In this document: piece by piece, positions 1,289-59,984 of the stretch
Layout: every line of letters starts with the position of its first letter
How positions within the stretch are numbered: the first letter of the stretch is position 1
NCBI GenBank assembly: GCA_005791875.1
Contig: SXTU01000291.1
Span: forward strand, 4,138 to 68,137
Origin: Verrucomicrobiales bacterium
Lineage (GTDB): Bacteria; Verrucomicrobiota; Verrucomicrobiia; Limisphaerales; SXTU01
Direction of reading: 5' to 3'
DNA length: 64,000 bases
The notes under the pieces: generated by a model
Databases searched by the model: none
Told to the model about the DNA's origin: nothing
The model's input: only the letters and a program-made list of their open reading frames with translations
Made by a program: the position numbers and the translations under genes

Positions 1289-1431
1289 AGAATGACCAAA
1301 GACCAATGACGCAATGCCCAATGAATGCTCAATTTCCAATACCCAATGCCCGGCAAGCGTCTTGCGGCTCCCAGCGCTCCATTGGGCCTTGGTCATTTTT
1401 TGGGCATTGCGTCATTGAGAATTGGTCATTC
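1289..1431. repeat. Heptad-word palindrome, CAATGAC-type words (copy A1)
   Basis: The left arm is gaatgaccaaagaccaatgacgcaatgcccaatgaa... The right arm is ...ttgggcattgcgtcattgagaattggtcattcc, its imperfect reverse complement. It lies between the P1 stop (1436) and the sixA start (1272). Confidence 0.85.
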
Positions 1432-1435
1432 CCCG

Positions 1436-2854
1436 CTACGGCTGCGGCTGAAACACAATCCTGCTGAACGCCCTCGGCGCAAACTCCGCCTTTCCGAAGT
1501 TCGCGCTGCTCGCACGCACGGCCTTCTCTGTCCAGCTTTCCAGCGCAATCGTCAGGCTGCCGCGCCCGGCGAAGAACACGCGGATGTCGCCGGCCTGCAC
1601 CGGCGCGGTCTGCGCGCGGTCGGTGGCGAAGTCCACCTGCCCGATGCGGTCCATGGGTATCTCGATGAAGTTGTCCGCGACTGCGAAGCGCAGCTTGCCG
1701 TCCTTCAGCTCCACCAGGCGGCCTGCGATGGTATCGCGGTTCACCAGGCGACCCACGTCGTTCTTCACGTTGGGCACGAGCGCGGCGACGTTTTCATCGA
1801 GCCGCCCGTCCCACTCGCTGATGCGGAGGTTTGCCAGCCGCATTGGTCCCGAACCCTGATGCACGAGCCGGATGCCGGTGCCCTGGCCGCCGAAGCCCTC
1901 GGTGTCGACCCACTGCTTCGCCAGGACGCCGTTGATGAACACGGTGATGGTCTTCTGCTCGCGGCTGGTCTTGATGCCGATTCGCGCGCGGTTGGTCTGC
2001 TGGAGCTGCGGGATGACGGCCATGCCGAGCTGGCGCACCGGCTCCTTGTGCTTCACGAGCAGGAGCTGCGTGGAGTAGCTATTCAACTGAAGGCTGTAAA
2101 ACCCGCCGAACGGAGGCTCGTCCGCTGTCTGCGCGAGGCGCACGGGCTGGAGCGAATCCGTGTAGAGCGCGATGGCCAGCGCGAACTGCCCCTGCCACGC
2201 GAGGTCGAACTCCAGCGAGGAACTCGGCGGCAGCTTCACGTCGCGCGCGATGGACGCGGGCTGCGTTGCTACAAACGCGCCGTTCACGAAATGCCATTCC
2301 CCGGCAGCGATCACCCCGCCGAGCGCCTTGCCCATCGTCCAGCCTTCCAGCCCGTCCGGCCCGGCGAAGACCGCGCGCGGCGTCGGCCCAGCCGGGCGCA
2401 CGCTGGCGACGCGCGGACGCGGCACCGTCAACGTGCCAGCAAACCACGTCTCCAGCACGAGCTGCTGTTCATTGAGCGACTTGAGGTTGCCGGAGATCTC
2501 GTCGCCGTTGGTGAGGCGGACGAAGCAGAAGTTCGGAGAGTTCGCGGGCGGTGGCAACTGTGCACCGAGGTGGATTTCCGCCAGCGCGGCGGGCTGGAAC
2601 TCAATCGAAGCCGCCGCGTCCGTGTGCCGCCAGCGCAGGCCGGTCGCGGGCGAGATGGACTCAAGCTGGCCGGTGAGAAGGTCGCCGTTGCGGAAGAGGA
2701 GGGCCTGAGGGGTTGAGGCAGAGCCGGCGCCGAGGGTGAGGGCGCTGAGCAGGGCCAGGAGCGTGATGCGTGATGCGTGATGCGTGAATGACGCCGGACA
2801 CCCGCGAGCGACGGCACGCAACACGCAACACGCAACACGCAACACAGCTTTCAT
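1436..2854 (-). CDS. Secreted modular protein, paralog P1 (hypothetical)
   Basis: 472 aa. The ATG at 2854 overlaps the P2 stop (ATGA). The hydrophobic core is ITLLALLSALTLGAGSA. It shares four short modules with P2 and P3 (ETWFAG motif; NxDxxxGxL..DGKL....EIP) flanking a central GLEGW...WxFxNG region that resembles a concanavalin/DUF1080-type jelly roll (weak recall). Confidence 0.7.
   Translation of the reverse strand: MKAVLRVACCVLRAVARGCPASFTHHASRITLLALLSALTLGAGSASTPQALLFRNGDLLTGQLESISPATGLRWRHTDAAASIEFQPAALAEIHLGAQLPPPANSPNFCFVRLTNGDEISGNLKSLNEQQLVLETWFAGTLTVPRPRVASVRPAGPTPRAVFAGPDGLEGWTMGKALGGVIAAGEWHFVNGAFVATQPASIARDVKLPPSSSLEFDLAWQGQFALAIALYTDSLQPVRLAQTADEPPFGGFYSLQLNSYSTQLLLVKHKEPVRQLGMAVIPQLQQTNRARIGIKTSREQKTITVFINGVLAKQWVDTEGFGGQGTGIRLVHQGSGPMRLANLRISEWDGRLDENVAALVPNVKNDVGRLVNRDTIAGRLVELKDGKLRFAVADNFIEIPMDRIGQVDFATDRAQTAPVQAGDIRVFFAGRGSLTIALESWTEKAVRASSANFGKAEFAPRAFSRIVFQPQP
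2761..2845. repeat. Heptad-word palindrome, GCGTGAT / ACACGCA words (copy E1)
   Basis: gcgtgat x3-4, then spacer ..gacgccggacacccgcgagcgac.., then acacgca x4. There is one A:A (or U:U) mismatch per heptad. It lies inside the 5' coding end of P1. Confidence 0.9.
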
Positions 2855-4452
2855 CTCTCGAAAAATTGTTGCAGCTCGGCCCCCATGAACGGGAGGTCCA
2901 GCACCAGCGGTTCACGGCCCGGGTTGAAGCGCAGCATCCGCAGCCAGCGCGCGTCGAGCGCGAGCGGGCCGAAGTGCGGGCTGACGCCGGCAAGCTGCTT
3001 GCCGTCCCAGCGCGGCTGCGTGAACGCGACGGTCTCGCCGCTGCTCAGGTGTGCGTGCGCCTCGCCCGCCGGACGATTCGTTGCGGGCGGAGTGACTGGA
3101 GCGAGGACAACCTGCGTGATCCGGGTGAGGGGAATTTCCAGGCTGCCGGCGGTCGAGGTCAGCGTGAGCTTGCCGTCGCGGATGGCGCGCACGTCGCCCA
3201 ACGCGCGGTCCTGGTTCGCGAGGCGGACGAGATGGCCGGTGAAGTTCGTCGCGACGATTTCTGGCTCGCTGGGGCGGCCGTCCCACGCCGAGACCTTGAC
3301 GCCGCTCAACTGAATTCCGCCCTGGAGCATGTAGAACGAAATGCCCGTCCCCGGCAGTGCCGGGCCGCGCGCGGCAGCGGCGGCGCGAACCGCCTCGGCG
3401 ACGGTCGGCGGCAGATTCGGGTCGAGCGCTGGCACGGCGGGCTTCACTAGGTTCGGGTCGTTCCACTGCTGGATCACGTTGCCGTCCACCACCAGCGTGA
3501 CCGCGCCTGCCAGCAGGTCCGTGCGGATCTCGACACGCATCTTGCGACCCGGCAGCGGCACGGGGATCTGCGCCTGGCCGAGGTGCTGCATTCCGAACTG
3601 GCCCTGCCCGCGCATGAGGTTCACGTAGCCCAGACCGAGGTTGAACTGGTAGCCGCTGGCGGCAAAGTTGAAGCGCTCAACCGCGTCGGTGTAGAGGCTG
3701 AAGTAGAGGTTCAACGCCCCGCTGCTGCCCACCTCGAACTCCACGCGCGACTGCGGGGGGAGCTTGAGGTCGCGGCCCATGAAGGCGTTCGCGCTGCCGG
3801 AGAGCACGCCATCGCGGAACTGCCATGCGGCGGGCGTCGGCCCGGTGGCCCAGCCCTCCAGGCCGTTGGGTCCGTCGTAGAGCGTGGCGAATCCTCGTGC
3901 GAGGAACGCGAGCGACTGCACGCCCGCGCGCGGCGCGCGGAGCTTCCCAGCGAACCACGTCTCCAGCTCGATGTGCGAGGCGTCGAGCGACACGAGGTTG
4001 CCGGTCAGCTCGTCGCCGTTCACGAAGCGGAAGCGGCAGGTGTGGTGCGCGCTGGACTGTGCCGGGGGCGGTGCGGTTTGCGCGAAGCGAATAAGGTGCG
4101 CGTTGTTCGGCAGGAACGCGATGGGCGCAGCGGACGCCGGGTGTTTCCAGCGGATGCCAGCCGGGTCAATCGCCTGCAACGAGCCATGCAACCGGGAGCC
4201 ATCAAGGAACTGAAACACATCTCCATCGGGCGCTGCCGGGCCTGCGAGAGGCGCGAAAATCTGCGCATGGCCGGGCGGGGGAGCAAAAACCTTCGGTGCC
4301 GGGCGAGGGGCGGGAGGTTGGATCAAGTTCTGTGCGCAGAGCGGAAGTGCGGTGGCGAGCAGGAGCGCGGCGAGCAGGAAGTAATTAGTGATTACTGATA
4401 AGTAATTGGTGATCCGGGTCGAGAGCGGGCTGGCATCCGGCTGGTCACTCAT
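2851..4452 (-). CDS. Secreted modular protein, paralog P2 (hypothetical)
   Basis: 533 aa from ATG 4452 (MSDQPDASPLSTRITNYLSVITNYFLLAALLLATALPLCAQ); the track start is 4527. It has the same module order as P1 and P3 (FVNGDELTGNLVSLD...ETWFAG; NGLEGW; NQDRALGDVRAIRDGKL...EIPL). Confidence 0.7.
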   Translation of the reverse strand: MSDQPDASPLSTRITNYLSVITNYFLLAALLLATALPLCAQNLIQPPAPRPAPKVFAPPPGHAQIFAPLAGPAAPDGDVFQFLDGSRLHGSLQAIDPAGIRWKHPASAAPIAFLPNNAHLIRFAQTAPPPAQSSAHHTCRFRFVNGDELTGNLVSLDASHIELETWFAGKLRAPRAGVQSLAFLARGFATLYDGPNGLEGWATGPTPAAWQFRDGVLSGSANAFMGRDLKLPPQSRVEFEVGSSGALNLYFSLYTDAVERFNFAASGYQFNLGLGYVNLMRGQGQFGMQHLGQAQIPVPLPGRKMRVEIRTDLLAGAVTLVVDGNVIQQWNDPNLVKPAVPALDPNLPPTVAEAVRAAAAARGPALPGTGISFYMLQGGIQLSGVKVSAWDGRPSEPEIVATNFTGHLVRLANQDRALGDVRAIRDGKLTLTSTAGSLEIPLTRITQVVLAPVTPPATNRPAGEAHAHLSSGETVAFTQPRWDGKQLAGVSPHFGPLALDARWLRMLRFNPGREPLVLDLPFMGAELQQFFER

Positions 4453-4481
4453 CGCTAAACACTGATCACTTATTACTGAGC
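4379..4481. repeat. Heptad-word palindrome, AT-rich AGTAATT/AGTGATT words (copy F1)
   Basis: The left arm is agtaatt agtgatt actgata agtaatt ggtgatc. The right arm is ggtcactcatcgctaaacactgatcacttattactgagc. The palindrome spans the P2 start codon (4452-4450). Confidence 0.8.
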
Positions 4482-4511
4482 ATTTCTTCACGCGCGCGGG
4501 AATAGAAGCCC

Positions 4512-7241
4512 TCACGGCCCGCCCCATTCATCCACCGGACCGCGCGGCGTGGAGGGGTTGAAACGCAGCGCGCGGATGGACTCCGGCTTGAGCGTCAGCC
4601 GGCCAAACACGGGGCTGACGGCGGTGACCTCGCCCGGCCCCCACTTCTCCAGCGACAGCGTGAGCCGCTCGTTGCGGTGCAGTGTGACCTGGACGCCCTC
4701 GACCTTCGGCAGCTCCGGCGCAGCGTTTACCGGGAAGGCGATAAGCGCCGCGCGCGTCAGGGGAATCTCCAGCTTCGCGCCCGCCGGGTTGAACGCGAGC
4801 TTGCCATCACGAATGCCGTGCAGCGTGCCTGTCGCGCGGTCCTGGTTCACGAACTCCACGACGGCGGTGTCGGGCGGCGGCACTTCCACAAGCTTGTCAG
4901 GATCGGCTCCCGGCGCGCCCAGCGGTTCGCGATCGCGGTCCACGCGGCCGTCCCACGGCGTGATGCGGATGTCACTGACGCGGACGCGGGAGTTGGAGTT
5001 GTAGTTATAGAAGACTACGCCGGTGCCGGGACCGGGCGAGCCCATGCCCTTCCACTCGTGGACCTTCTCGCCGTCGGCCAGCATCGTGGTGATCTCGGTC
5101 TCCGTGTTGACGAGGAAGGTGAGGCGCACCGTGCTCTTGTTGAGCATCTGCGGCACGCGCGCCCCGCTGGAACTGGTGGCACCGGCACCGGAGCGGCGCA
5201 TCGAGTAGATGTAGCCGGAGGACGATGTGTAGAACTGCCAGCCGTCGCTGAAGTCGAACTGCTCCGTGTTGCGCGTGAAGAACGAGAAGCGGAAGAAGGG
5301 CTGGCCCTTCCACGCCATGTCGAACTCGATGCGCGCCTTCGTGGGCAGATTGCACTCGCGCCCGAGCGTGCCCACGGCAGTCCCGTAATACGCGCCGTCG
5401 CGGAAGGTCCACGCGGCGTTCGTGTTCGCGGTGGCGGCGCGGCCGGCGAGCGCGGCCTCTGCGCCGGCGGCCCCGACGACGTTCAGGTTGTTCAACTGCA
5501 ACGCACCGAGCGCGCGGACCCGCGCCTCGGCGAGCGCGTTGGCATGCGCCACCACGAGCGCGCCCATGCCGAGATCCGCCTGCGCCTGCGCAAGCTGCTG
5601 ATCAAGTTCACGCGTCTCGGCCACGCCAGCACCCGCCGCGAGCGTCTGCAAAAGCCGCGCGCCCAACTGCGCGGCCTCGGCCTTCATCAGAGACTTGAAG
5701 CGCGTCTCCTTTGCCTTGTCCCGCGCGACAGCGGCGGCGTCCGTGAAGTCCTCGAACCAACGCGAGAGCGCGCGTTCGGAGGCGACATCCGCGTCCACGG
5801 CGGCGCGCACCAGGTCGGATTTGATGAACTCGCCAGCCGCCGCGGCCTTCTGCGCGGTCTCGACGAACTTCATGATGGCGGCGACTGCGTGCGGCTGGAT
5901 GGCAGCGGGTGCCGCCGCTACTGCCCGCACGCCGCCGAGCAGGTCATAGGTCCGCGTGAGCGCGATGGCTGAAGGGTCGTTCTTCAAATGCGCCAACTCG
6001 CGCAGCAAACGGCTCGTGAGCAGCGCGCCTTCGCGGCGGATGACAGTGCGCTGATCGCTCCCGCCCTCGGCCTGCTTCTCCAAGTCAGCCTTAATGGCCG
6101 GCGCTTTGACCAGGCCGGCCTCGATTGCGAGCAGAACCAAATCGGTCTTCAGGTAGTCGGCCACCGTGGCGGCCAAGCGGGCGCGGGATGCCATCGTGGA
6201 AATCTCGGGCACTGTGGGCTTCTTGTTGAAGGCGGGCGCGGGCGCGGGGTCGCCGGGTGCAAGCTTCGGTGGCGGCAATGGCGGGCGCTCGCCGGGTTGG
6301 GGAAGCTCCTTGAGCTTGCGATCCACTTCCGCCTTCACTGCCTGCGCGGCTAGGTCCACGGCGGACGCTAGCGGAGGCTCGGCGCGTTTCGGTAGGACGC
6401 GGATGGGCAGGACGGGCCGCGGTGGCGCTTTCGGATCAACCGCGTTGGCCGGCTGCTTCGCCGCTGCCTCTTCCATTTCCTTCAGCCGCAATTCCAAAGC
6501 CTGCTTCAAGACGGGTGAGCCTTTCTCGCCGAGCTTCGCTATCTCCTCCTTGAGCTGGATCACGGCTTCCTGCGGCGTCGGCTCCACGACCGGCCGGGCT
6601 GGTGCCGCGAAGCGAATGGCGGGCATGAAATTCACATTGTTGCCGGCGGCATCGAACCCGATTCGGTTCACGGTGGCGGAGCCGGTGCTGACCTTCCACT
6701 CGTCCGCCGCGCGCGGGCCGTCGTAGAGCGCGGACTGGCTGCTGCCGTAGAAAGACAGGCTCGCCAGCCCCGAGCGCTGGCCGCGCAACCGCCCGGCGAA
6801 CCAGGTCTCGATCTCGAAGCTCTCGCCATCGAGCGACAGCAACTGCCCCTCGAACTCGTCGCCGCTGGCGAGCTGCACTCGGCAGACAGGCGCGGAATTG
6901 GTCGGCAGCGCCAGCGCGCGCGCGGGCATGCGGATGCTGTTCAGGTTCGTGGTGGTGAACTCGATGGGCTGCCGGGCGTTGGGATGCCGCCACTTGAGCG
7001 TCTCGCTGTTCAGAGACTCGATCTCCCCGCGCAGGAAGGAGCTGTCGAGGAAGGAGACGGTGGCGGGGGGGAGGTTGGTGGCGGGCAGGTTTGTTGAACC
7101 AGCCAGCAGCGCAAAAAGAAGATAACTTCCAATGTTCAACTTCCAACGCTCAACGTGCGAAGGCGCGCACTTGGACGTTGAACGTTGAACGTTGAGCGTT
7201 GAGCGTTTTCCGACTCCAAGTTGAAGCTTCCTACCGTTCAT
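4512..7241 (-). CDS. Secreted modular protein, paralog P3 (hypothetical), with long Ala/Pro/Lys/Glu-rich insert
   Basis: 909 aa. The ATG at 7241 overlaps the 3' end of the upstream gene by 11 nt. The core is SYLLFALLAGS. It has the same terminal modules as P1 and P2 (LASGDEFEGQLLSLD..ETWFAG; NQDRATGTLHGIRDGKL..EIPL) plus a ~400-aa low-complexity insert after module 2. Confidence 0.7.
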   Translation of the reverse strand: MNGRKLQLGVGKRSTLNVQRSTSKCAPSHVERWKLNIGSYLLFALLAGSTNLPATNLPPATVSFLDSSFLRGEIESLNSETLKWRHPNARQPIEFTTTNLNSIRMPARALALPTNSAPVCRVQLASGDEFEGQLLSLDGESFEIETWFAGRLRGQRSGLASLSFYGSSQSALYDGPRAADEWKVSTGSATVNRIGFDAAGNNVNFMPAIRFAAPARPVVEPTPQEAVIQLKEEIAKLGEKGSPVLKQALELRLKEMEEAAAKQPANAVDPKAPPRPVLPIRVLPKRAEPPLASAVDLAAQAVKAEVDRKLKELPQPGERPPLPPPKLAPGDPAPAPAFNKKPTVPEISTMASRARLAATVADYLKTDLVLLAIEAGLVKAPAIKADLEKQAEGGSDQRTVIRREGALLTSRLLRELAHLKNDPSAIALTRTYDLLGGVRAVAAAPAAIQPHAVAAIMKFVETAQKAAAAGEFIKSDLVRAAVDADVASERALSRWFEDFTDAAAVARDKAKETRFKSLMKAEAAQLGARLLQTLAAGAGVAETRELDQQLAQAQADLGMGALVVAHANALAEARVRALGALQLNNLNVVGAAGAEAALAGRAATANTNAAWTFRDGAYYGTAVGTLGRECNLPTKARIEFDMAWKGQPFFRFSFFTRNTEQFDFSDGWQFYTSSSGYIYSMRRSGAGATSSSGARVPQMLNKSTVRLTFLVNTETEITTMLADGEKVHEWKGMGSPGPGTGVVFYNYNSNSRVRVSDIRITPWDGRVDRDREPLGAPGADPDKLVEVPPPDTAVVEFVNQDRATGTLHGIRDGKLAFNPAGAKLEIPLTRAALIAFPVNAAPELPKVEGVQVTLHRNERLTLSLEKWGPGEVTAVSPVFGRLTLKPESIRALRFNPSTPRGPVDEWGGP
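7127..7207. repeat. Heptad-word palindrome, ACGTTGA words (copy D1)
   Basis: ttccaatgttcaacttccaacgctcaacgtgc, then spacer gaaggcgcgcac, then ttggacgttgaacgttgaacgttgagcgttgagcgtt. It lies inside the 5' coding end of P3. Confidence 0.85.
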
Positions 7242-8271
7242 AAATGGGCAGGAACCGGTAGTTCAACGCCAGCGACAGCAGCGACGCCGCCGTGCCGAAG
7301 GAATTTCCAAACGACCCGTCCCAACTCCCGTCCTTGTTCTGCGTGGCGGCGAGGGACTTGATGTTCGCGCCGTTCCACTTGCGCCACGCGTCCGGCGAGC
7401 TGTGGAAGTAAGCCTGCGCCGCGTAGTAGAGGTAGTATTGCTGGTAGTGCGCGTCGCCAGCGGCGGTCTGGAGATACTGCCACGCGCCCTTGAACTCCGC
7501 CGTGTCCTTCCGTTTCGCCAGCGCCTGGACGAGCACGCCGATGGCGCACCGCGTCGCGTTCGGCCCGCTCGCGCCGGTGTAGCCGTAACCGCCCTCGGGA
7601 GTTTTGCAGCTCGTGAAATACTTGAGGCCCTTCTGAATCGCATCCTCCGGCACCGCGAGGCCCGCGTTGCGCGCGGCGAACATCGCGACCATCTGCGCGC
7701 CACTCACGGTCGTGTCCGCGTCCGAGCTTTCCGGCGAGTAGCGCCAGCCGCCGTGTGGGTTGCGCGCCTGCGAGGCGACGATGAGGTTGATGGCGCGCTG
7801 GAGCGCCGGGCCGAGCCGGGCGTCCTCCACCGCACCGTAGGCTTCTGCTAGCGCGAGGGCACCGAAGCCGTGGTTATACATCGAGGTGCCGATGTAGCCG
7901 GTGTCCTTGTTCTGCTGCGCGAGCAGGGCGTTCAGCCCGCGTTTGATGGCCGACGCGTAAGGGCCCACGTTCGGGTCGTCGCCGTGCGCGAGCATCGCCA
8001 CCACGCACAGGCCGATGACGCCCGGCTGCCGCCCATACACATCCGCCCACGCGCCCTCCGCCGACTGCGACTTGATGAGATACTGCAAGCCCTTCACATA
8101 CATCACGTCAATCGCCGCCGGGCTGGCGTCGGACTTCTCGATGAAGAGCTGTTGGGCGGAGGCTTCGCAGAATGACCAAGGCCCAATGACCAAGGCCCAA
8201 AGAATAACCAATGACCGGAGCGCGGCGTTCACGCTGCAGAAGGTTCCGATCAGCAAAAGGCGCAAGGACAT
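7231..8271 (-). CDS. Prenyltransferase/squalene-oxidase-repeat (alpha/alpha-toroid) family protein, secreted
   Basis: I prefer ATG 8271 (MSLRLLLIG...). The track start, GTG 8334, overlaps the upstream stop as GTGA. Repeated motifs AEGAWAD, PHGGWRY, PEGGYGY and KDGSWDGSFG occur at roughly regular spacing, as in terpenoid-cyclase-like repeats. Confidence 0.65.
   Translation of the reverse strand: MSLRLLLIGTFCSVNAALRSLVILWALVIGPWSFCEASAQQLFIEKSDASPAAIDVMYVKGLQYLIKSQSAEGAWADVYGRQPGVIGLCVVAMLAHGDDPNVGPYASAIKRGLNALLAQQNKDTGYIGTSMYNHGFGALALAEAYGAVEDARLGPALQRAINLIVASQARNPHGGWRYSPESSDADTTVSGAQMVAMFAARNAGLAVPEDAIQKGLKYFTSCKTPEGGYGYTGASGPNATRCAIGVLVQALAKRKDTAEFKGAWQYLQTAAGDAHYQQYYLYYAAQAYFHSSPDAWRKWNGANIKSLAATQNKDGSWDGSFGNSFGTAASLLSLALNYRFLPIYER
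8171..8219. repeat. Single (unpaired) arm of CAATGAC-type heptads inside a CDS
   Basis: aatgacc aaggccc aatgacc aaggccc aaagaat aaccaat gaccgga. It translates as LVILWALVIGPWS within the signal-peptide region of the 7231..8271 gene. Confidence 0.8.
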
Positions 8272-8330
8272 ATTCAGACAGCCGGACGTTGCTGCGGCCT
8301 GAAGGCCGCGCTCCACTGACGCCTTCGCGC

Positions 8331-11300
8331 TCACGGCTTCGCCTCCACGGCCTTGAAGAAGTTCTCCAGCGCCTCGCGGAACTCCGCCGGCACCTGCCGC
8401 GTCACGCCGCTGCCTTTGCCGGTGCGGCGCGCCGCCGCCTCGGCTCCACGCGCGTCGCCAACCGTGCCCGCGCTGGCCTTGTCGGTGTTGCCGCCGTTTT
8501 GATTCGGACCGCCGGGCTGCTGGCCGGGCTTCATGCCGATTTGCGCCTCCTGCTGCGCCATCTGCATCATCATCTCGGCCTCCGCCTGCGCCTGCTGCTG
8601 TTGCTGGCCGTCCTTGGGCTTCTGCCGCTTGGCCTGCTCGTTGATGAGATTGATGAGGTCGGTCAAGTTCAGCAGCGCGTCGTTCTCCGGCTTCTGCGCG
8701 GGATCACCGGTGAGCTTGTCGAAGAGAGCTGACTCCGCGTCGCGCATGCCGTCCTGCGTGTTGAGCAAGAACTCCTTCGCCTCCTCGATGTCGTTGCTCA
8801 TCTGCAATTTGGTCAGGTCGCCGCGCAGCGCACGCTGTTGCTCCCCGACCTTCAGCGCCCCTTCGGCGTAGCGGGGGTTCTGCGCCTTCTCCTCTTCGAG
8901 CAGCATCGTCTGCTGCAACACCCGCATCTCGCCCCCGCGCAGCCGGATCGCCGCCATCAACATCTTGAGCAACTTGTCCTCCTTCGGCTGGCCCTCGCCT
9001 TCGCCTCCGCCGCTTTCCTCCTCCGGCGGCTCCAGCTTCTTCGACCAGCCGGCAAAGCGCTTCGTCCAAGTCGCGAGGTTGCCCATTGCGTCCATCGAGA
9101 TGTTCGCGTCAATCAGCCCGCGCACGCGGTCGAGCTCGTTGGGCGTGTTGACCTCCTTCATCTCCTTGGCGACCTCGCCGTAGTTCGCGCGCTGTGTGCG
9201 GTCGAAGAACCGGCTCATCTCCGCCACGACCTTCTCCGCCTCCACCTTCACGCCGCCTTGGTCGCCGGCCAGCGACGTGTTGATTTTCTTGTAACGCTCC
9301 GGCAGCTCGCTCGGCAGCAGGCCGATGGTCTCGCCCACCACCTTGCCGAGCTGCTCGCCCAGGCCCTTCTCCGACTCCGAAAGTTTCTTCAGCCGCTGTG
9401 ACAGCGTGAGCGCCTGCAAGTTGTCGAGGCCGTCGTTCATCTTCTTCTGGAGCGCCTGCAATTTCTCCAGCGCCTTCTCCTCCGCCTCAAGCGCCTTGGT
9501 CGCCTCGTCCGCGCGGTCCTTTGCCTCGCTGCTCTCCTGCGCTTTTTGGAGCGCTTGCTGCGCGTCCTTCATGTCCCCCTTCGCAAGCGACTTCATCTGC
9601 GCAAGGTTCTGCGTCCACTCGCGGAGCGTCTGCTGCGTGAGCGTCGGGTTGCGCATCGCCTCGCGCACGATGTCCTGACCCTGCTCCGCGATGCGGTCGA
9701 GTTGCGCGGCGTTGCGCGCCTGCTCGTCGGCCTGCTCGCCGGCCTTCTTCGCAGCCTCGTCGGACTTGAGCTTGTCCTCTGGCAATCCCATCAACTCGCG
9801 TGTCGCGGCGGTGATGGCTTCCTCCTTGCGCGTGACTTCCTCGACCTGTGCGAAGAGCGCGTCCAGCTGCTGCCGCACCAACTCTGCATGCTTGGAGAGG
9901 CTGACGATGTTGATGCGATGCGTGACTGACTCCGCCGGCTCGCGGCCCGGGAGGAAGTCCGTGGCCAGACCCTTCACCTCGACGACCGAGTCCGCCGGGA
10001 TGCGCATGACCGTGGGGCTGAACATGAACGTGTTCGTGAAGCGGCGCTCCTGCGCGCCCGTCGCCGACTTCCTGAACTGCGCAATCGCCGGCGTGTTCGT
10101 CGGGTCGAGCGACGCGACAATCTCGGAGGTGACTGCGCCTTCGCGCACGCCGAAGTCATCCGATGCGGAGAACCTCAGCGGCAGCACATCGGTCTCGAGA
10201 ATCGAAACCTCCATGCCGAGGTCGCCGAGGTCCACGCGTGGCGCGCCGTCCTTCATCGGGCGCAAGGCCAGCAGCCAAGGCGCGATGGGCTTCAGTCCGA
10301 ACTCATCCCGCCAATCGAACGTGGCCTGCGACGACGCGTCGAGCTTGAGCGAGCCACTATTGAACTTCTCGCCCGAGAGCAGCAGCGACACCGGCTCGGT
10401 CTTGTCCACCGTCACCTCCGCCGACGCAAGCGGGCGCGTGGCGGTGCCGGCCAGCGTGACGCGGCTGCCTTCGAGCACGGGCAACGTGGCGTTCTGCACG
10501 ACTTGGTTCGTCGCCGGGTATTGCAAGTAAGCCGGGAGTGCGACATTCGCCGCGAGCTGCTTGAGTGCGGGGCGGTGCAACGGCTTCACCGCGATGGTGT
10601 GCGTGGCGTCGCCGAGGCGGACGCGGAGCGAACCGTTCTGCGTCTGGCCGGGGATGGTGAGCTTGGCCGAGCCGTTCTTCACCGGCGCGGAAAGTTTGGA
10701 CTGCAACTCAAAGCGCCCGCTCGCGCTCGCGGGCTTCCAGAACGAGCGGTAAGTCACCTTGGCCACCAGCTCGAACGGCTCACCATGCGGCACGACGAGC
10801 TGCGCCGGCACGTTCTCGAGCGTGATGAACGTGTAGCGCGGAATGCCGGCGACCGGCACCGCCCAACGCTGAAGCGCGTTCCAACCCGCAGCTGGCGCGA
10901 CGGCGAACGCAAGCACCACCGGCACCAGCCCCGCCGCGAGCGCGATGCTCGCGAGCCGCGCGGGCCGGGAGTTCACCACCTCGAGGAAATCAAACTTCGC
11001 CGCGTCCGCCGAGACTTGCCGGATGGCCGCGCGGCAGAGCGCGAGCGACATGTTCTGCGGTCGCTGTTTCTCCTCCGCGAGTTCCACGATGCCCAGCAAC
11101 CGGTCGCCGAGCCGGCGATGCCCGTGCTGCACGACGTTCGACAACGCCCGCAAGTCGCGCCGCTGCCAAATCCAGCTCCGACACCACCGCACCGCAAACC
11201 ACGCCGCACCCGCGAGCCCCGCAAGCAACAGCGCCGTGCGCAGCGCCTTCGGCGTGTCCCCGACACGGTCGCACAGGAAGAGCAGCGCGAACGAAGCTGC

Positions 11301-11420
11301 CAGCGCCGCGACCCCGCCGGCCACCGCGTGCGTCGTCTCCGTCCGCCACAGCGCGCGCTCCAGCGCCGCGAACTGAGCGCGCAACGAGTCAGGCAGGGAG
11401 ATGCGGTTATCGGAGGCCAT
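8331..11420 (-). CDS. Large membrane protein with coiled-coil C-terminal half (DUF4175-like, unverified)
   Basis: 1029 aa from ATG 11420 (MASDNRISLPDS). It has three hydrophobic spans near the N-terminus, a beta-rich middle, and a ~450-aa Glu/Lys/Gln/Ala-rich region ending VPAEFREALENFFKAV. The track fuses it to the upstream gene as one 1285-aa ORF. Confidence 0.65.
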   Translation of the reverse strand: MASDNRISLPDSLRAQFAALERALWRTETTHAVAGGVAALAASFALLFLCDRVGDTPKALRTALLLAGLAGAAWFAVRWCRSWIWQRRDLRALSNVVQHGHRRLGDRLLGIVELAEEKQRPQNMSLALCRAAIRQVSADAAKFDFLEVVNSRPARLASIALAAGLVPVVLAFAVAPAAGWNALQRWAVPVAGIPRYTFITLENVPAQLVVPHGEPFELVAKVTYRSFWKPASASGRFELQSKLSAPVKNGSAKLTIPGQTQNGSLRVRLGDATHTIAVKPLHRPALKQLAANVALPAYLQYPATNQVVQNATLPVLEGSRVTLAGTATRPLASAEVTVDKTEPVSLLLSGEKFNSGSLKLDASSQATFDWRDEFGLKPIAPWLLALRPMKDGAPRVDLGDLGMEVSILETDVLPLRFSASDDFGVREGAVTSEIVASLDPTNTPAIAQFRKSATGAQERRFTNTFMFSPTVMRIPADSVVEVKGLATDFLPGREPAESVTHRINIVSLSKHAELVRQQLDALFAQVEEVTRKEEAITAATRELMGLPEDKLKSDEAAKKAGEQADEQARNAAQLDRIAEQGQDIVREAMRNPTLTQQTLREWTQNLAQMKSLAKGDMKDAQQALQKAQESSEAKDRADEATKALEAEEKALEKLQALQKKMNDGLDNLQALTLSQRLKKLSESEKGLGEQLGKVVGETIGLLPSELPERYKKINTSLAGDQGGVKVEAEKVVAEMSRFFDRTQRANYGEVAKEMKEVNTPNELDRVRGLIDANISMDAMGNLATWTKRFAGWSKKLEPPEEESGGGEGEGQPKEDKLLKMLMAAIRLRGGEMRVLQQTMLLEEEKAQNPRYAEGALKVGEQQRALRGDLTKLQMSNDIEEAKEFLLNTQDGMRDAESALFDKLTGDPAQKPENDALLNLTDLINLINEQAKRQKPKDGQQQQQAQAEAEMMMQMAQQEAQIGMKPGQQPGGPNQNGGNTDKASAGTVGDARGAEAAARRTGKGSGVTRQVPAEFREALENFFKAVEAKP

Positions 11421-11486
11421 TGGAATGTCTGACGGACTGTAACACCCGGTTGCTCCGTCACAATCCCCAAGTTCCCTGAGCCAGCG

Positions 11487-11590
11487 CCCGTGCCGGCGTG
11501 CTTCCAGCCGCCGTCTGCGGGCCACAGCAATTCGAGCGACGCTCAAGCACTCAACCCCCAACACGGCGGCTGGAAGCCGCCGGCACGGGC
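11487..11590. repeat. MITE-like unit with ~28-bp terminal inverted repeats carrying a mini-hairpin
   Basis: gcccgtgccggcgtgcttccagccgccgt ... acggcggctggaagccgccggcacgggc. It sits exactly between the DUF1501-like C-terminus and the next gene start. Confidence 0.85.
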
Positions 11591-12846
11591 CGCATCCCCA
11601 CAGCCCGCGCAGCTTCTCCTTCTCCGTCAGCCCCAGCGGGAATTTCTTCGCATGCGCGTGCGTGGCGATACCAGCGAACTCCCGCAATGCCTCGTGGATG
11701 TGCTCGGGGCGAATCTTCAGGCCCTTCTTCTTGTCCAGCGCAAGCGTCGCCGGGTTCAGGTTCACGCCGAACTGCTTCTCGTCCGTTGCGCCGATGACGC
11801 GGTTGCCCTTGATGCCGGGGGCGAGGAACATCACCGAGCCGATGGACCAGTAGTCTTTGCCGTTGCCCTTGTTGTAAGTCGGCGTGCGGCCCATCTCGCT
11901 CTGGATGACGATGACGAGCTTGTCCCGAATCTTCAGCGCCTCGGCCCGGCGGATGACGTAGGCGATGCCGGCGAGGAACTCGGGGATGAGCTTCATCTGG
12001 TCCACGTCGTTGTTCTGATGGCTGTCGAACTGGCCGATGCTCAGGTTCGCCGAGACGCAGACGCCGGCCTTGAACGACGCCAGCGCAATCTCCGCCTGCT
12101 GCGCGAGCCGCTCCTTGGGCACGTCCTTGGGAATGTGTGGCGTGACGCGCGCCATCGTCTTCGAGTTCACCTGCGCCGCGTAGAGCATGGACTCGGCGGC
12201 TCCGCAGCTCGCGCTGTTCCGCCAGCGCCTGCTCGATGCGCGTGAGCGCGAAGTCCTCGTGGTAGGGCGAGCGCAGGTTGCCCTCGATGTGGTCGGCGTT
12301 CGCGATTTTCTGGAGCGACGGCAGATACGGCACGCGCGACATCGCGACGACGTTGCCCGTGGCCGAGTAGTTGCCGAAGGTGAGGAACGAGAGCGGGCAG
12401 GTCGGCCCCTTCGCGGCGGCCACGAGCGCGGCGAAGGTCGGGTAGGCGAGGCTGTCGAGCTTGCCGGTGGCCATGTAGCGCGCGCCGGGCGCGTGGTTGT
12501 TCACCGAGTAGTCGAGGCCGTTGAACGTGAGCAGCTCGGAGCCGAACTCGGCGTAGAACTCCTCGTTGCTCATGCCGCCAGTCTTGTGCTTGTCCGTCGG
12601 CGCGAATTTGTCCGCGCCTTTCGTGAGGATGTCGCCCTCCTTGTAGAGGTGGTTCATCTCGTTGACGCCCTTGGGGTCAATCAAGTAGGTCGTGTCCCAG
12701 CCGCCCGAGGCGTTGAAGACGATGTAGAACAGCCCCTCGTAAGGAGGCTCCTCCTTCACCGCCGCGCGCAGCAGCGAGGTCATGCCACCGGGGCAGGCGA
12801 AGTCAAGGCCGGTGAGGGCGCAGAGTTTTAGGAAATCACGTCGCAT
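11591..12846 (-). pseudogene. DUF1501-like protein, disrupted by a +1 frame change and lacking its own stop
   Basis: It has a Tat-like start MRRDFLKLCALTG (ATG 12846). About 215 aa sit in one frame (FNASGGWDTTY ... SPYHEDFALTRIEQALAEQRELRS). The protein-like signal then moves to the frame of ORF 8331..12188 (YAAQVNSKTMARV ... QFDSHQNN ... SEMGRTPTYN), with the switch between about 12189 and 12215. Confidence 0.55.
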
Positions 12847-12979
12847 AAAAATCTGGCGTGATCGGCGTTGTTCCAAACGCTGGCCGTCAAGAAATACGCC
12901 GCCCGTTTCGGAGAATCAGAGGCTGGTCTGAGCAGGCACGCGGCTTGCCCGCAAGTGGCGGCGGGTGTAAAGAAGGTCC

Positions 12980-13120
12980 ATGCAAACAAGCATTGACCTC
13001 GACGAAGAGCTGCTTGACGAGGTGGCGAAGGCGGAAGGCCTGAACCTCAGGCCCACCCCGTCACGCTGCTGGCGGAGGCGAATCGGAAGCATGACCAATT
13101 ACCCAATGACCAATGAATGA
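12980..13120 (+). pseudogene. VapB-like (DUF2191-type) antitoxin fragment
   Basis: The 46-codon ORF MQTSIDLDEELLDEVAKAEGLN... matches the MxTxIDIDDELLxEA opening of VapB antitoxins. After about 22 aa it degenerates and runs into repeat A2. No toxin gene follows. Confidence 0.3.
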
Positions 13121-13247
13121 CCAATTGCCCAAGCCCAACCGGAGGGCGTCGTTGGGCGTTGACCTTGTGAAAACTCGTGGTTTTCGCATGGCCAGGGAGC
13201 ATTGGGCATTCTTTGGTCATTGAACATTGGGGACTGGTCATTCTCCC
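13091..13247. repeat. Heptad-word palindrome, CAATGAC-type words (copy A2)
   Basis: atgaccaattacccaatgaccaatgaatgaccaattgccc ... attgggcattctttggtcattgaacattggggactggtcattctccc. It ends 1 nt before the eda ATG. Confidence 0.85.
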
Positions 13248-13901: not shown

Positions 13902-13983
13902 GTGACGACGTGAGGAGTCTCTAACTTCTCCTCCGTGCGGGATTGGTCTCGGGCGTGGGAAAAAGGCAGAGACTCGTCACCTA
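13899..13983. terminator. Long inverted repeat embracing two convergent stop codons (possible bidirectional terminator)
   Basis: taggtgacga(cgtgag)gagtctct ... agagactcgtcaccta, with an inner gaggag/ctcctc stem at about 13912-13933. Both TAG stops (eda and the 13981..14640 gene) lie in the outer arms. There is no U-tract. Confidence 0.3.
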
Positions 13984-14640: not shown

Positions 14641-14685
14641 GCGACGGGCGGAAGATTCCTGAACGCGCGGGCAGGGCTGCCCGCG

Positions 14686-15695: not shown

Positions 15696-15704
15696 TTCGC
15701 CGCC

Positions 15705-19234: not shown

Positions 19235-19237
19235 AGG

Positions 19238-52529: not shown

Positions 52530-52713
52530 TCCCGGTCTGGGCTGCTCCTTCAACAGTCTGGGAGGCAACTCGGCTGTCCGGGAAGGCTTCTTGGGCAGTC
52601 CGGGCCATCCGATCGAGGCAAACTCCCATCCAGTCTTGCCAAGGTGTGACCCAGTCGAGGGAAGGTGTGACCCAGTCGGCCAAAGTTGTCATCCGGTCGG
52701 GCCAAGGAATGCT
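52530..52713. repeat. Degenerate ~21-nt tandem array (core CCAGTC...), best five units 52609-52713
   Basis: The units are ccgatcgaggcaaactcccat / ccagtcttgccaaggtgtgac / ccagtcgagggaaggtgtgac / ccagtcggccaaagttgtcat / ccggtcgggccaaggaatgct. Weaker units extend back to about 52530. The array lies in the 450-bp gene-free gap after pilB. Confidence 0.75.
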
Positions 52714-52873
52714 CCTAGAAACGGCACTTTAGCGCAGAGGCGCGAAGGCGCGGGGGAAGAGAGGGGGTGGAGCCGAGGCTATTCGCTATCCTCCATCCTC
52801 TATCCTCCTGCTTTCTCGTGGTTCTGCGTCTGTGCGCCTTTGCGCCACCACATCTCAACCGCAGGAACCAGAG

Positions 52874-54088: not shown

Positions 54089-54146
54089 GGCGGGAGGTTA
54101 GGAAGCGACGGTGAAGCAGGCCAGTCTGTTTTCAGAGGAGGGGGAA

Positions 54147-54214
54147 AGTGTTCAGTGTTCAGTGTTCAGCGGGGCGTGCGGAGGCAGGGCAACTTTCTGA
54201 ACACTGAACACTGC
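54147..54214. repeat. Heptad-word palindrome, AGTGTTC / GAACACT words (copy C2)
   Basis: agtgttc x3, then spacer ggggcgtgcggaggcagggcaactttc, then ctgaacactgaacactgc. The spacer ends resemble those of C1. It fills the gap between the ceramidase-like stop and the hydrolase start. Confidence 0.9.
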
Positions 54215-55633
54215 TTACTTCCCCTTCAGCTCCCCCAGCATCTCCAGCAGCGCCGTGACGATCTTCGTCGAGGCCTGCTCCTCCAACCGGTTCGTTCCCA
54301 TCCACGTCTCGTAACCGCCCAGGCGATGGTGCGCGGGCGTGGGCAGGTAGCCGTAGTAGCCGTTGGCAATCGAGTGCGTGAAGCTCGGCTTGAAGGGATT
54401 GCGCGCCTTCAGTTCCAGTCCCGTCTCCACAAACGTCTCGCACGGAATCCCCGTGAGGCCCACGTCGCCGACGCGCAGCGCCTGAATCGGAATCGCCAGC
54501 CGCGCCGGATACTCCGCCATGCCCAGCGTGCGCTCGGCGTAAATCTCCTCCAGCGTCGCCGGGCGCGGCAGGCTCTTCGGGCGGCCGAGCACTTCCTTCG
54601 CGCGGGCGATTTGCTCGGGCGTCGGGCGGCGTGTGCCGACTTCGAGTTCGCGCAACTGCCCGCCCAGCGGAACCCAGTCGCGATACTGGATGCCTTGCAG
54701 CGCCTTGAACGCGACTGCCGCCACGTCATTGGCCACGAGTTGCATCCGCGCGTAAGGCTCGTCGCGCGTGCCAGGCTTGGAGAAATCAATGTTGTTGATG
54801 TTGCCGCTCGTGCCATTGGCCAGCATCGCGACGAACGCCGGGCGCTGCCGGTCCGCGCCGAGGAGTTGCTGGAGCCGGTCGCAGAACAGCGCGAAGTAAT
54901 CCGCCGAGATGTGCCCGTTGCCGACGCCGCCGACGTAGTGCAGCGAGTAGTTCGCCAGCACCGCGATGGGCCGGCCCTGGGGCGACTGCACGGACACGAG
55001 GCAGATTTCCGGGTCGGTCGGGCCGGAGGGTCGGTCGAGGCTTGGGCTGGCGCGCCCCGGGTTCATCTTCACGAGGTCGTTCGTGCTGCCGAAGGGATTC
55101 ACCGGCATCGTGCCGGGCTTGAGGAACCACCGGCGGTTGAAGACATGGTTCGGTTCCTGCCCCGTCGCCCAGCCGATGCGCGCGGGCGCGAGGTTGTTCA
55201 TCGCGCGGCGCACGCCGTCTGCGATGCGCCGCGCGACGAACTGCTGATACTCATCGAGCGGCGTGTGGATGCGGAAGCGGTTCGTGCCCAGCGCGCTTGT
55301 CGCCGAGTGCGTGTGCGTCGAGGACATGAAGAGATTCGCGCCGGGCAGTCCGGTCTCCTCCGTCACCAGCCGCCGCGCCGCGTCATAGACTTCCCGCGAG
55401 GCCCCGAGCAAGTCGCACACGACGATGGCCAGCCGCGTCTCGCCGTTGTCCAGCGCGAGGCAGCGCGCGTGCAGCTCGTCGTGGATGTGCGTGGAGGGAA
55501 TAGGGTGGAAGCCGCCGATGATGCCGCCGCCGAGCGGGGGCGTGAGGTTGCTCAAGGCCGCGCCGGCACGGAGGATTTGGGGCTTGTCCGCCGCAGTGAC
55601 GGGCAGGGCGATGAGGGAGAGAAACAAAATCAT
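54215..55633 (-). CDS. Neutral/alkaline ceramidase-like hydrolase
   Basis: ATG 55633 (MILFLSLIALPVTAA). LGGGIIGGFHPIPSTHIHDELHARCLALDNGETRLAIVVCDLLG and SSTHTHSA resemble the ceramidase_alk N-domain (from memory). Confidence 0.6.
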   Translation of the reverse strand: MILFLSLIALPVTAADKPQILRAGAALSNLTPPLGGGIIGGFHPIPSTHIHDELHARCLALDNGETRLAIVVCDLLGASREVYDAARRLVTEETGLPGANLFMSSTHTHSATSALGTNRFRIHTPLDEYQQFVARRIADGVRRAMNNLAPARIGWATGQEPNHVFNRRWFLKPGTMPVNPFGSTNDLVKMNPGRASPSLDRPSGPTDPEICLVSVQSPQGRPIAVLANYSLHYVGGVGNGHISADYFALFCDRLQQLLGADRQRPAFVAMLANGTSGNINNIDFSKPGTRDEPYARMQLVANDVAAVAFKALQGIQYRDWVPLGGQLRELEVGTRRPTPEQIARAKEVLGRPKSLPRPATLEEIYAERTLGMAEYPARLAIPIQALRVGDVGLTGIPCETFVETGLELKARNPFKPSFTHSIANGYYGYLPTPAHHRLGGYETWMGTNRLEEQASTKIVTALLEMLGELKGK

Positions 55634-55638
55634 GATGG

Positions 55639-55738
55639 CACCGCAGAGGCGGGACGGACGCAGAGGAGCGGCGGAAGAACTTAGAGATCCGCTCTTCTGG
55701 TTCCAGTCTTCCTCTGCGGCTGTCCCGCCTCTGCGGTG
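55639..55738. repeat. ~100-bp palindrome in the divergent ceramidase-like / esterase intergenic region
   Basis: caccgcagaggcgggacggacgcagagg (55639-55666) pairs with cctctgcggctgtcccgcctctgcggtg (55711-55738). Confidence 0.8.
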
Positions 55739-55813
55739 CAAATCCCCGGCGGTGTAACCAAAGCGGTGGAGGTGAAGTCCAGTCATACGCAAATTCTCTG
55801 TGTTGCTCTCGCC

Positions 55814-57331: not shown

Positions 57332-57338
57332 TGGCGCA

Positions 57339-57417
57339 GGTAGGGCGCGTCTGTCCCGGCGCGCCGGTTGGGCTTTCGGATGGTCTGGCGGCGCGCTGGG
57401 GACGGACGCGCCCTACC
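57339..57417. mobile_element. 79-bp TIR element GGTAGGGCGCGTC...GACGCGCCCTACC (copy B2), MITE-like
   Basis: It folds as a ~27-bp imperfect stem and lies between convergent stops (57331 and 57425). It is homologous to 23557-23635. Confidence 0.85.
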
Positions 57418-57424
57418 TCATGAC

Positions 57425-59458: not shown

Positions 59459-59553
59459 GTCGTCAGCTTAATGGCGGATCAAGCCAGCCGGAAGCTTCTC
59501 CTGATGGGAGATGGCGGGCTTGCAGTCGGCGGTGGAATGCAGACACTGCGGCC

Positions 59554-59913
59554 ATGCGTCCATTCCAAATCATCTTCACGCCGACCGGGGCCGCCGAGCT
59601 GTCCAAGATGCCCAAGGAGCTGCAGCTCCAGATCCTCGGTGAGTTTCGCGGCCTGCCACAGGAGGTCATCAGCACGGAGCTGGAGCGCTTCGGCAAGCTG
59701 GAGCGCGACGGCCATGTGCTGCACCGCTTCCGCGTGGGCGACTACCGGATCTACTTCGAACGCCACGAGCTGGGCGTGCTGGTGCAGCGCATCCTGAGCA
59801 AGAACTCGCTGAAGGATTTTCTCTTCCGCTCCAGCCTGCCGCTGGGCGAGGACGAGGCGTTGCAGGACAACCCGAAGTTCTGGGAGCTGATGCAGTCGGC
59901 GAAGGCGAAGTAA
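59554..59913 (+). CDS. RelE/ParE-fold toxin-like protein with ~35-aa C-terminal extension
   Basis: IIFTPTGAAELSKMPKELQLQILGEF ... HRFRVGDYRIYFERHELGVLVQRI follows the ParE/RelE pattern (RVGDYRIIY). No adjacent antitoxin ORF is present. Confidence 0.55.
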   Translation: MRPFQIIFTPTGAAELSKMPKELQLQILGEFRGLPQEVISTELERFGKLERDGHVLHRFRVGDYRIYFERHELGVLVQRILSKNSLKDFLFRSSLPLGEDEALQDNPKFWELMQSAKAK

Positions 59914-59915
59914 AG

Positions 59916-59984
59916 GGAAAGTAACTAGTAATTAGTGCTCAGTCCCACTGGGGGCGTGCCTTCACTAAATACTAATCACTTTCC
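59916..59984. repeat. Heptad-word palindrome, AT-rich GTAATTAGTG-type words (copy F2)
   Basis: ggaaagtaactagtaattagtg pairs with cactaaatactaatcactttcc (19 of 22 by hand). It lies between convergent stops 59913 and 59994. Confidence 0.8.

Follow-up and report, generated by a model that had tools for sequence, protein, structure and literature searches.

Palindromes with tandem heptamer arms at gene junctions of a Verrucomicrobium genome as probable dispersed hairpin repeats

The window analyzed here is a 64,000-nucleotide (nt) stretch of DNA from a Verrucomicrobiales bacterium (assembly GCA_005791875.1, contig SXTU01000291.1, positions 4,138 to 68,137 of the forward strand), and the subject of this study is a set of 11 palindromes in which one arm is a tandem array of a 7-nt word (heptamer) and the other arm carries the inverted array. 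On balance, we favor the interpretation that these elements are dispersed hairpin repeats similar to repetitive extragenic palindromes (REPs) or MITEs (miniature inverted-repeat transposable elements), with arms that were built and reshaped by slippage. Both the spread of the elements and the slippage of their arms are observed in the comparisons described below. The way of spreading is presumably that of non-autonomous repeats, and the stem-loops may affect the stability, processing, or translational coupling of polycistronic mRNA. The 11 elements are as follows (none has an assigned strand; z denotes the fold z-score).

1289–1431: AATGACC-family palindrome, between the stop of a 472-amino-acid (aa) open reading frame (ORF; stop at 1436, minus strand) and the ATG of a SixA-like gene (1272)
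2758–2847: GCGTGAT x4 / CACGCAA x4 palindrome, in the open 5' leader of ORF 1436–2854; z -5.0
4379–4481: AGTAATT/AGTGATY palindrome, in the open 5' leader of ORF 2851–4527
7124–7208: AACGYTC/ACGTTGA palindrome, in the open 5' leader of ORF 4512–7241; z -3.4
13091–13247: AATGACC-family palindrome, in a divergent intergenic region, touching the ATG of the KDPG-aldolase gene (13248, plus strand); z -4.0
15623–15696: CTGCGTG/AACACGC palindrome, between the LemA stop (15705) and the MTHFR gene, with a right-arm copy number that varies among strains; z -5.1
22539–22609: AGTTGAT palindrome between convergent genes, its first unit being the lipA stop codon
23495–23726: AATGACC-family palindrome in the grx-lipA spacer, supplying the grx stop, with a GTAG-type repeat nested in its own spacer
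33462–33547: AGTGTTC-family palindrome between a stop (33550) and an ATG (33455), both on the minus strand
54142–54224: AGTGTTC-family palindrome, its stem taking in the last codons and the TAA of a ceramidase-like gene; z -8.2
59916–59984: AGTAAYT/AGTGMT palindrome between the convergent stops 59913 and 59994; z -4.5

An earlier note, made from the nucleotide letters alone, had described palindromes of constant architecture but varying words at gene boundaries. This description was borne out, and the 11 paired inverted heptamer-array loci were found where the note had placed them or a few bases away (starts such as 2758 and 2761, 7124 and 7127, 33462 and 33468, or 54142 and 54147 denote the same element). 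Under a fixed rule (at least 3 units and at least 85% lag-7 identity), the window contained 11 period-7 arrays, far above the 0.6 found in dinucleotide shuffles (n = 20), and no arrays with periods of 8–15. Tandem Repeats Finder independently detected 2761–2787 (GCGTGAT x3.9, 100%), 2815–2845 (CACGCAA x4.4, 100%), 54147–54169 (AGTGTTC x3.3, 100%), and 31682–31714 (GATTGCC x4.7), and the sequence AATGACCAATG occurred 19 times with at most 1 mismatch, compared with 0.37 expected. The fold z-scores, computed for the set without 23495–23726, ranged from -2.3 to -8.3, and 10 of 11 elements were more stable than all of their 200 shuffles; for 4379–4481 on the minus strand, 2 of the 200 shuffles were equally stable. 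In the 1289–1431 element (-73.2 kcal/mol, z -8.3), the arms 1290–1340 and 1381–1431 are complementary at 78%. When arms consisted of mixed units, they matched clearly better in the true mirror register than after a 7-nt shift (e.g. 0.80 vs 0.51 and 0.78 vs 0.61), and the two arms are therefore mirror images rather than independent arrays.

The elements were also compared with independent assemblies of the same species, which are 99.7–99.96% identical and were obtained via an exact-protein look-up. The covered elements, a set that leaves out 1289–1431 and 2761–2845, were identical in these strain assemblies except for one heptamer unit at 15674–15695. Because the covered elements are unchanged across several strain assemblies, an assembly artefact is excluded for them. 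The short-read contigs L087–L089 terminate inside the 23495–23726 element.

A census of 161 lipA-centred loci from related genomes and metagenomes (1.86 Mb) showed that the excess over controls extends to relatives. Among 97 period-7 arrays, 62 had an inverted partner within 250 nt, vs 1 in a reverse-only control. Pairing was likewise found for arrays of period 8 (13/24) and period 10 (9/15), and it was rare for period 9 (2/9). More than 12 different words are in use across this lineage, and the dominant families are genome-specific (TTTACGA in L050, CATTCGT in L054, and GAGTGCGA in L003); a metagenome scan added one further close relative, L107. The 50 paired period-7 elements comprised 24 in co-directional, 11 in convergent, and 5 in divergent contexts, with 10 unclassified. 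In the window, most elements occupy stop-to-start gaps or gaps between convergent stops, as had been suggested from the sequence; the exceptions are 2761, 4379, and 7127, which lie in open leaders, and 13091–13247, which lies between divergent genes. Also widespread is a family of palindromes with a 10-nt period (CCACAGATGAACACRGATGAA ... TTCATCTGTGTCCATCTGTGGCTAAA; L003–L005, L107, L013, L019, L022, L066, L124, L134, L150, and L164), found in the grx-lipA spacer, at the lipA 3' end, and in the spacer upstream of gcvT, and often hosting other repeats nested within it. The region upstream of gcvH repeatedly contains an 8-nt family (AATTGTTG) and TCTTGGCG arrays.

The words had been thought to be locus-specific, but they are specific to families: copies with the same word have common termini, unit order, and spacer motifs, are dispersed, and occur in either orientation relative to transcription. 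The families in the window are AATGACC, GCGTGWT, and AGTGWTY/AGTAATT, and ACGTTGA and AGTTGAT are single-copy words. Eight AATGACC-type 3' arms are colinear in an alignment and agree in the placement of an irregular 11-nt unit (CATTCTTTGG / CATTCATTGG); six belong to the three full copies, one is the coding arm at 8171, and one comes from L188. The spacers of the copies at 13091 and 23495 have GTTGGGCGTT in common. The two AGTGTTC copies (33462 and 54142) have common GGGGAAGTAAK termini as well as spacers that begin with a G run and end with GGGCAAC, in agreement with the homology that the earlier note had proposed for 33468 and 54147. The two GCGTG copies have a common CGCCGGAC-centred spacer in opposite orientation, yet both are located in minus-strand operons. 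The variety of words had been taken to rule out a single transposing MITE family. Several related MITE/REP-like families fit the data well, however, and since the same families recur at other junctions in related genomes, mobility is compatible with the observations.

These relationships bear on a purely local origin, in which heptamer slippage at each locus would be combined with inverted duplication or fold-back template switching, without dispersal, and a shared mutational bias would make the words similar. We consider this explanation quite unlikely, because the eight AATGACC-type arms are colinear with their irregular unit at the same position, because the AGTGTTC and GCGTG pairs each have spacer and terminal sequence in common, and because the same families are found at different junctions in L187 and L188. 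It does draw support from the unit-length slippage seen directly (see below), from the existence of unpaired arrays (33 of 83 in the census, and those at 18586 and 31682 in the window), and from the report (cited in PMC4679880) that heptanucleotide repeats rank first in abundance among the long simple-sequence repeats of many bacteria; their over-representation in bacteria is credited to Mrazek et al. 2007.

The presence or absence of an element was observed at one site, the grx-lipA spacer. In L001 and L002, this spacer consists of just TGA, 7–8 nt, and ATG (the empty site); the window has a 224-nt element instead, and grx ends on its first unit. In other species, the spacer contains CATTCAA, CAACCTT, or AATGACG elements, the 8-nt AATTGTTG family, or the 10-nt CACRGATGAA family. 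Turnover of families was observed in the operon 12188–778, for which five junctions were compared with L187 and L188 (~90% protein identity) and two with L189 (82%). A palindromic element is present at nearly all of the compared junctions, the exception being junction 1-2 of L187, and its family depends on the species.

Junction 2-3: AACGYTC in the window, CGTGTTY in L187, AATGACC in L188, and AACGYTC in L189 (with the same left arm as 7124–7208)
Junction 3-4 (the 4379 element): AGTAATT-type in the window, decayed in L187, and AGTGTTC in L188
Junction 5-6: AATGACC in the window, a GGGAA...TTCCC palindrome with no clear heptamer word in L187, and GCGTGTT in L188

At junction 4-5 (the 2758 element), the hairpins of the window, L187, and L188 have the same length and align without gaps. 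In this alignment, 86% of the cells pair, vs 29–55% with slid partners, and six pairs have changed on both sides. A similar result was obtained for the lipA 3' element, with the word AGTTGAT in the window and AGTTGAG/AGTTGAA in L003; both versions pair, each at about -33 kcal/mol. Complementarity of the arms at orthologous loci, whose absence the earlier note would have taken as a refutation, is confirmed, together with compensatory change.

Hairpins persist at given junctions across three to four species despite the change of family, compensatory changes are present, and most of the classified paired elements (35 of 40) lie where co-directional or convergent genes end. All of this would be expected of selected intercistronic RNA structures, in which each junction would need a long stem-loop to protect the upstream cistron, provide an RNase III site, or tune translational coupling, and the sequence would drift while pairing. 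We regard this explanation as unlikely. It leaves the common termini and spacers at unrelated junctions unexplained, a single family is found in both orientations relative to transcription, and L001 and L002 do without any element in the grx-lipA spacer. In addition, the strand preference is inconsistent. At 33462, the plus strand folds at -42.9 and the minus strand at -24.1 kcal/mol, as anticipated in the earlier note from G:T mismatches; the opposite asymmetry claimed for 7127 did not hold up (-34.1 vs -32.6 kcal/mol). The antisense fold is much better at 33462 and 4379, and the sense fold is slightly better at 1289 and 15623. Since the wobble-pair asymmetry is strong at 33462 and 4379 but weak at the other elements, and differs in direction among elements, it indicates no consistent RNA sense; G:U strand bias, considered as a sign of selection at the RNA level, gave no verdict because its direction varies by element. 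Nor do the elements resemble intrinsic terminators (a hairpin with a U-tract): none within 1–20000 was flagged, the scan giving 16 sites vs 15.6 expected, and no T runs occur in the element flanks. A search of the whole window against Rfam 15 gave no matches at the gathering score.

Slippage is seen among strains as unit-length polymorphism. The right arm at 15674–15695 has AACACGC x3 or x4 in assemblies that are 99.7–99.96% identical, with each allele present in several assemblies, and between the closest pair, L081 and L083 (~18–20 kb each), one AACACGC unit is the sole indel. Within arms, slippage and the spread of variants would account for a further feature: at 2761 and 33462, each arm is uniform internally, and one position per unit differs from the partner arm. 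The 2758–2847 element thus has a single mismatch in each heptamer, and the right arm of 33462–33547 has C-to-T in all units.

The elements at 2761, 4379, and 7127 are preceded by an ATG overlapping the upstream stop (ATGA in the case of ORF 1436–2854) and followed by the hydrophobic core of a signal peptide, which places them inside open 5' leaders. Read from the overlapping ATG, the leaders at junctions 2-3, 3-4, and 4-5 are in frame and free of stops in 9 of 10 cases; in the remaining one, L188 junction 2-3, the frame is closed by the element. At junction 4-5, the 105-nt leader is without indels, although ~34% of its sites have changed, and the changes are distributed over the codon positions as 13, 10, and 13, vs 40, 16, and 167 in the rest of the gene. 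Judging from these substitution patterns, the leaders are probably translated, with a constraint on their length only. Because the elements lie in open 5' leaders, gene callers disagree on protein length from assembly to assembly; for example, the ORF ending at 2851 is called with 533, 558, and 562 aa. Downstream of the 1289–1431 element, the start of the SixA-like protein, MKLYFLRHA, is kept in L187 and L188.

Repeats in the probably translated leaders of secreted-protein genes raise the question of phase variation, since a heptamer gained or lost by slippage would shift the frame by one base and turn the gene on or off. Unit-number polymorphism, which is expected of phase-variable repeats, is indeed present in one array (AACACGC x3 vs x4), the three ORF leaders remain open and in frame in the window, L187, L188, and L189 despite turnover, and the 105-nt leader is indel-free without codon-position bias. 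Nevertheless, we judge such switches to be very unlikely. The polymorphic array lies upstream of the MTHFR start assigned by gene callers and outside the three leaders, no copy-number variation of the 4379 and 7127 leader elements was found among 5–7 strain assemblies, the arrays are short (3–5 units), and coding leaders hold a minority of the elements.

The use of element sequence by genes extends to stops and signal peptides. The grx stop is the TGA of the first AATGACC unit and the lipA stop is the TGA of the first AGTTGAT unit, which confirms the proposal that elements supply stop codons. The arm at 8171–8219, which had been described as a lone arm, is in fact coding sequence. Homologs of the 7231–8334 protein have ~330 aa, and a protein alignment showed that the mature part begins with AQQLFIEK. 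The signal peptide before this point is ...LRSLVILWALVIGPWSFCEASA in the window and close relatives, with the translated heptamer arm as its hydrophobic core. In L188, the third operon gene takes its ATG start from the last AATGACC unit, and its signal peptide MTGARFVIRHSSLVILWSLVIGHWSFA is encoded wholly by the element spacer and 3' arm; the DNA encoding it is homologous to the DNA encoding the signal peptide of a different window protein. A database search did not reveal wide use of the element-encoded signal peptide, returning only five short ORFs (78–98 aa), one with an E value of 9e-6 and the others with E values of at least 0.4. The coding arm and the unpaired arrays of the window are as follows.

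8171–8219, minus strand: arm of the AATGACC family, coding for the hydrophobic signal-peptide core (SLVILWALVIGPWSF) of a prenyltransferase/squalene-cyclase-like protein
31682–31716, minus strand: GATTGCC x5 array, unpaired, coding; it gives HQSAIGNRQSAI in a PSCyt2/PSD1 protein
18586–18610, minus strand: ATTCCGC-type heptamer array, unpaired, just upstream of the Robl/MglB-like start
52785–52808, no assigned strand: weak CTATCCT-like array, unpaired, with 3 copies at 85% (Tandem Repeats Finder), in a repeat-rich convergent spacer

The GATTGCC array had been reported correctly as tandem-only, and its coding location is a correction; the CTATCCT array, listed as possible, is weak. The array at 18586–18610 was absent from the earlier list, and its ortholog in L003 consists of CATTCCG x4 beside a non-complementary CAGCGRW array.

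It is conceivable, though in our view unlikely, that the palindromes serve as frame-neutral junction cassettes. Their period is not divisible by three, and both strands read alike. Landing in any frame and any orientation, they would bring stops, NTGA stop-start overlaps, and an open 3' arm coding for hydrophobic residues, and they would have been repeatedly recruited as stops, starts, and signal peptides; slippage in leaders could then switch secreted-protein genes. ATGA, GTGA, or TTGA is enriched in 5'-arm words (24/100 vs 8/100; random expectation 5.9%), which we take as a lead only, because the families are not independent. A simple rule that 5' arms carry stops and 3' arms are open was rejected, being reversed in the AGTGTTC and AACGTTC families; the stop content of arm words is 24% vs 32%, with a random expectation of 21.5%.

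Under the interpretation as dispersed hairpin repeats, the lineage would harbor a population of short non-autonomous elements, with an arm word usually of 7 nt and sometimes of 8 or 10, and each genome would hold a few related families with several copies each. Copies would persist only at cistron boundaries as the tolerated sites of a compact genome, namely at stop codons, in stop-start gaps, between convergent stops, and in the unconstrained 5' leader before a signal peptide. After insertion, the arms would vary by replication slippage, whole units at a time, and unit variants would then spread inside one arm. The arms stay complementary across speciation, which would be due to selection on the hairpin or to templated correction. 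As the period is not a multiple of three, an array would give the identical peptide or stop in all three frames, and this frame-independent reading may enable the elements to provide stops, starts, and even a signal peptide.

Several points weigh against this interpretation. A transposase or RAYT-type gene was not found in the gene tables, with ~100 kb of this genome covered, and a search of ~1.9 Mb of loci for autonomous copies (inverted partners 0.3–5 kb apart enclosing a gene) returned only neighboring small elements. As for target-site duplication, TGA was found at the 23495 copy by comparison with the empty L001/L002 site and nothing consistent at the other copies, and the candidate duplication CGTGA flanks only a non-heptamer palindrome, 8217–8314. 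The presence of an element at nearly every compared operon junction could reflect selection for hairpins rather than tolerance of selfish DNA. No explanation is offered for the dominance of 7 over 8 and 10, and the orthologous comparisons comprise two to four species.

Paired heptamer arrays have been published for Xanthomonas and Geobacter, and the architecture is therefore not new in kind; in the literature searched, we found no account of such arrays for a genome of the Planctomycetes-Verrucomicrobia-Chlamydiae (PVC) type. In Xanthomonas (Rehm et al. 2015), GGGAATC tandem heptamers of 2–26 units form 70–75 convergent opposite-strand array pairs per genome that are capable of forming stem-loops. 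About 90% are intergenic, at a mean of 28 nt from the upstream stop, mostly in co-directional gaps (16% convergent and 7–8% divergent), and species differ in array length while keeping the single or paired type (PMC4692102). Our elements are similar in their convergent paired arrays, in their proximity to the upstream stop, and in their preference for co-directional and convergent gene gaps. They differ in that Xanthomonas uses one G-rich word, read as a G-quadruplex, whereas many words without G-runs are used here, and in that the Verrucomicrobium has several families per genome and copies inside predicted translated leaders. The class-3 "global regulator" sites of Geobacter metallireducens consist of five tandem heptanucleotides (MTYCTGA), are multicopy, and are drawn as looped strand-switching pairs, for which the authors propose IHF/HU binding (PMC2700814); they use one word, in contrast to the many words found here.

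By analogy with these nucleoid-protein sites and G-quadruplexes, the elements might be protein-binding arrays or non-B DNA acting at the DNA level. We consider this highly improbable despite the similar architecture of the Geobacter class-3 sites and Xanthomonas GGGAATC pairs. The use of more than 12 words in one lineage argues against a sequence-specific binder, quadruplex-compatible G-runs are absent (no word has a run of at least 3 G), and the compensatory changes indicate base pairing rather than a recognized sequence.

The elements share with the short tandemly repeated repetitive (STRR) sequences of cyanobacteria their head-to-tail heptamers, their location in non-coding DNA, and their proximity to start codons. 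AATGACC is the rotated reverse complement of TTGGTCA, the STRR2 word, and other families of the window use other words. The link drawn in the earlier note also fits Nostoc recO, where GAC(C/T)AAT x8 is the same cyclic word as AATGACC; the heptamer arrays of Nostoc are mostly unpaired, with few pairs reported. Given that the host is a Verrucomicrobium and not a heterocystous cyanobacterium, common descent with STRR sequences is unlikely.

The likeness to REPs, bacterial interspersed mosaic elements (BIMEs), and REPINs lies in the many extragenic palindromes at gene 3' ends and in operons, the genome-specific families, and the mRNA stem-loops. In REPs and REPINs, however, the unit itself is an imperfect palindrome of 20–40 nt that bears a GTAG or CGTC tag and has a RAYT (Y1 transposase) gene as its partner, whereas the heptamer arms are non-palindromic, untagged, and internally tandem. 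MITEs (Correia/NEMIS) and Rickettsia palindromic elements are non-autonomous inverted repeats present in many copies at gene ends or in frame within ORFs, and they can add coding or regulatory sequence. Our elements resemble MITEs in having terminal inverted repeats, a size of 70–230 bp, and dispersed copies, with families that recur in L187 and L188. They differ in the lack of a clear target-site duplication or an autonomous partner and in terminal repeats that are slipping tandem arrays. A separate GTAG family coexists in the window: the 23495 element carries an exact GGTAGGGCGCGTC within its spacer at 23623–23635, and 57338–57418 is a GTAG-tagged REP-like palindrome (AGGTAGGGCGCGTCTGTCCC ... 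GGGACGGACGCGCCCTACCT). GTAG repeats are known from the verrucomicrobium Opitutus terrae (PMC3733652).

What is novel here is the host phylum, the presence of several related families per genome, the turnover at conserved junctions, the evidence for conserved pairing, and the recruitment into coding sequence. Heptanucleotide repeats, reported to be abundant in many bacteria, have no agreed function or origin. Dispersal, slippage, and pairing constraint can be separated in this system because many families, orthologous junctions at graded divergence, and strain polymorphism coexist. Annotation is also affected, in that starts, stops, and the signal peptides of secreted proteins are partly repeat DNA, and gene callers disagree exactly there.

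The DNA derives from a soil or freshwater Verrucomicrobium of Limisphaerales/Pedosphaera type. The G+C content of the window is 63–69%, PVC-typical PSCyt1/PSCyt2/PSD1 and DUF1501 genes are present, and the best lipA matches are Verrucomicrobiota/Limisphaerales metagenome-assembled genomes with 90–94% aa identity. A tRNA/tmRNA scan found none. A 4.4-kb segment, 17983–22377, is missing from three strain assemblies (L084, L085, and L099), and the junction there yields a fused 74-aa ORF. The segment contains a zf-CDGSH gene, a Robl/MglB-like and Arf/MglA-like pair, a 468-aa gene, a PatA-type response regulator, and two small genes. The 1285-aa ORF at 8331–12188 is ~250 aa longer than its orthologs (1030–1033 aa, L187–L189), and its N-terminus matches the middle of DUF1501 only; the ORF may have been fused to a gene fragment, or its start may be set wrongly. 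An exact-protein look-up with it gave no match. The 1,060 nt upstream of it (12189–13247) contain no called gene.

Palindromes of other kinds are also present. A non-heptamer family starting with GGAGCGCGGCGTTCAC has three exact copies in the window (8217–8314, 26801–26906, and 39804–39819). In minus-strand ORFs, the reverse complement of this motif, GTGAACGCCGCGCTCC, forms the 5' end and reads as a GTG start followed by NAAL(R). Relative to L187, the 8217 copy is an insertion of ~114 nt with CGTGA on its flanks, and the motif is also found in L044 and L045, adjoining heptamer arrays. Other strong non-heptamer palindromes at gene boundaries (39894–40017, 40671–40728, 55638–55739, and 61028–61178) have arms of 24–32 nt with 93–100% complementarity, and the 39894 type (CCCTCTCCC...GGAGGAGGGGAGAGGG) resembles the CTCTCCCCTCCGAGGGGAGAGGG repeat of many related loci. 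A further palindrome, 46315–46406, has a strain-variable 11-nt indel between its arms (46353).

Repeat variation among strains was also observed apart from the elements. Near the 52785–52808 array, 21-nt and 9/10-nt repeats vary among strains within a repeat-full convergent spacer of 450 nt: the 21-nt tandem repeat at 52630–52707 has one extra unit in one strain, and an adjacent 9- or 10-nt TAGAAGAGA(G) insertion at 52763 is present in all other strains. At 3384, in a coding region, a 12-nt in-frame tandem duplication is polymorphic among strains.

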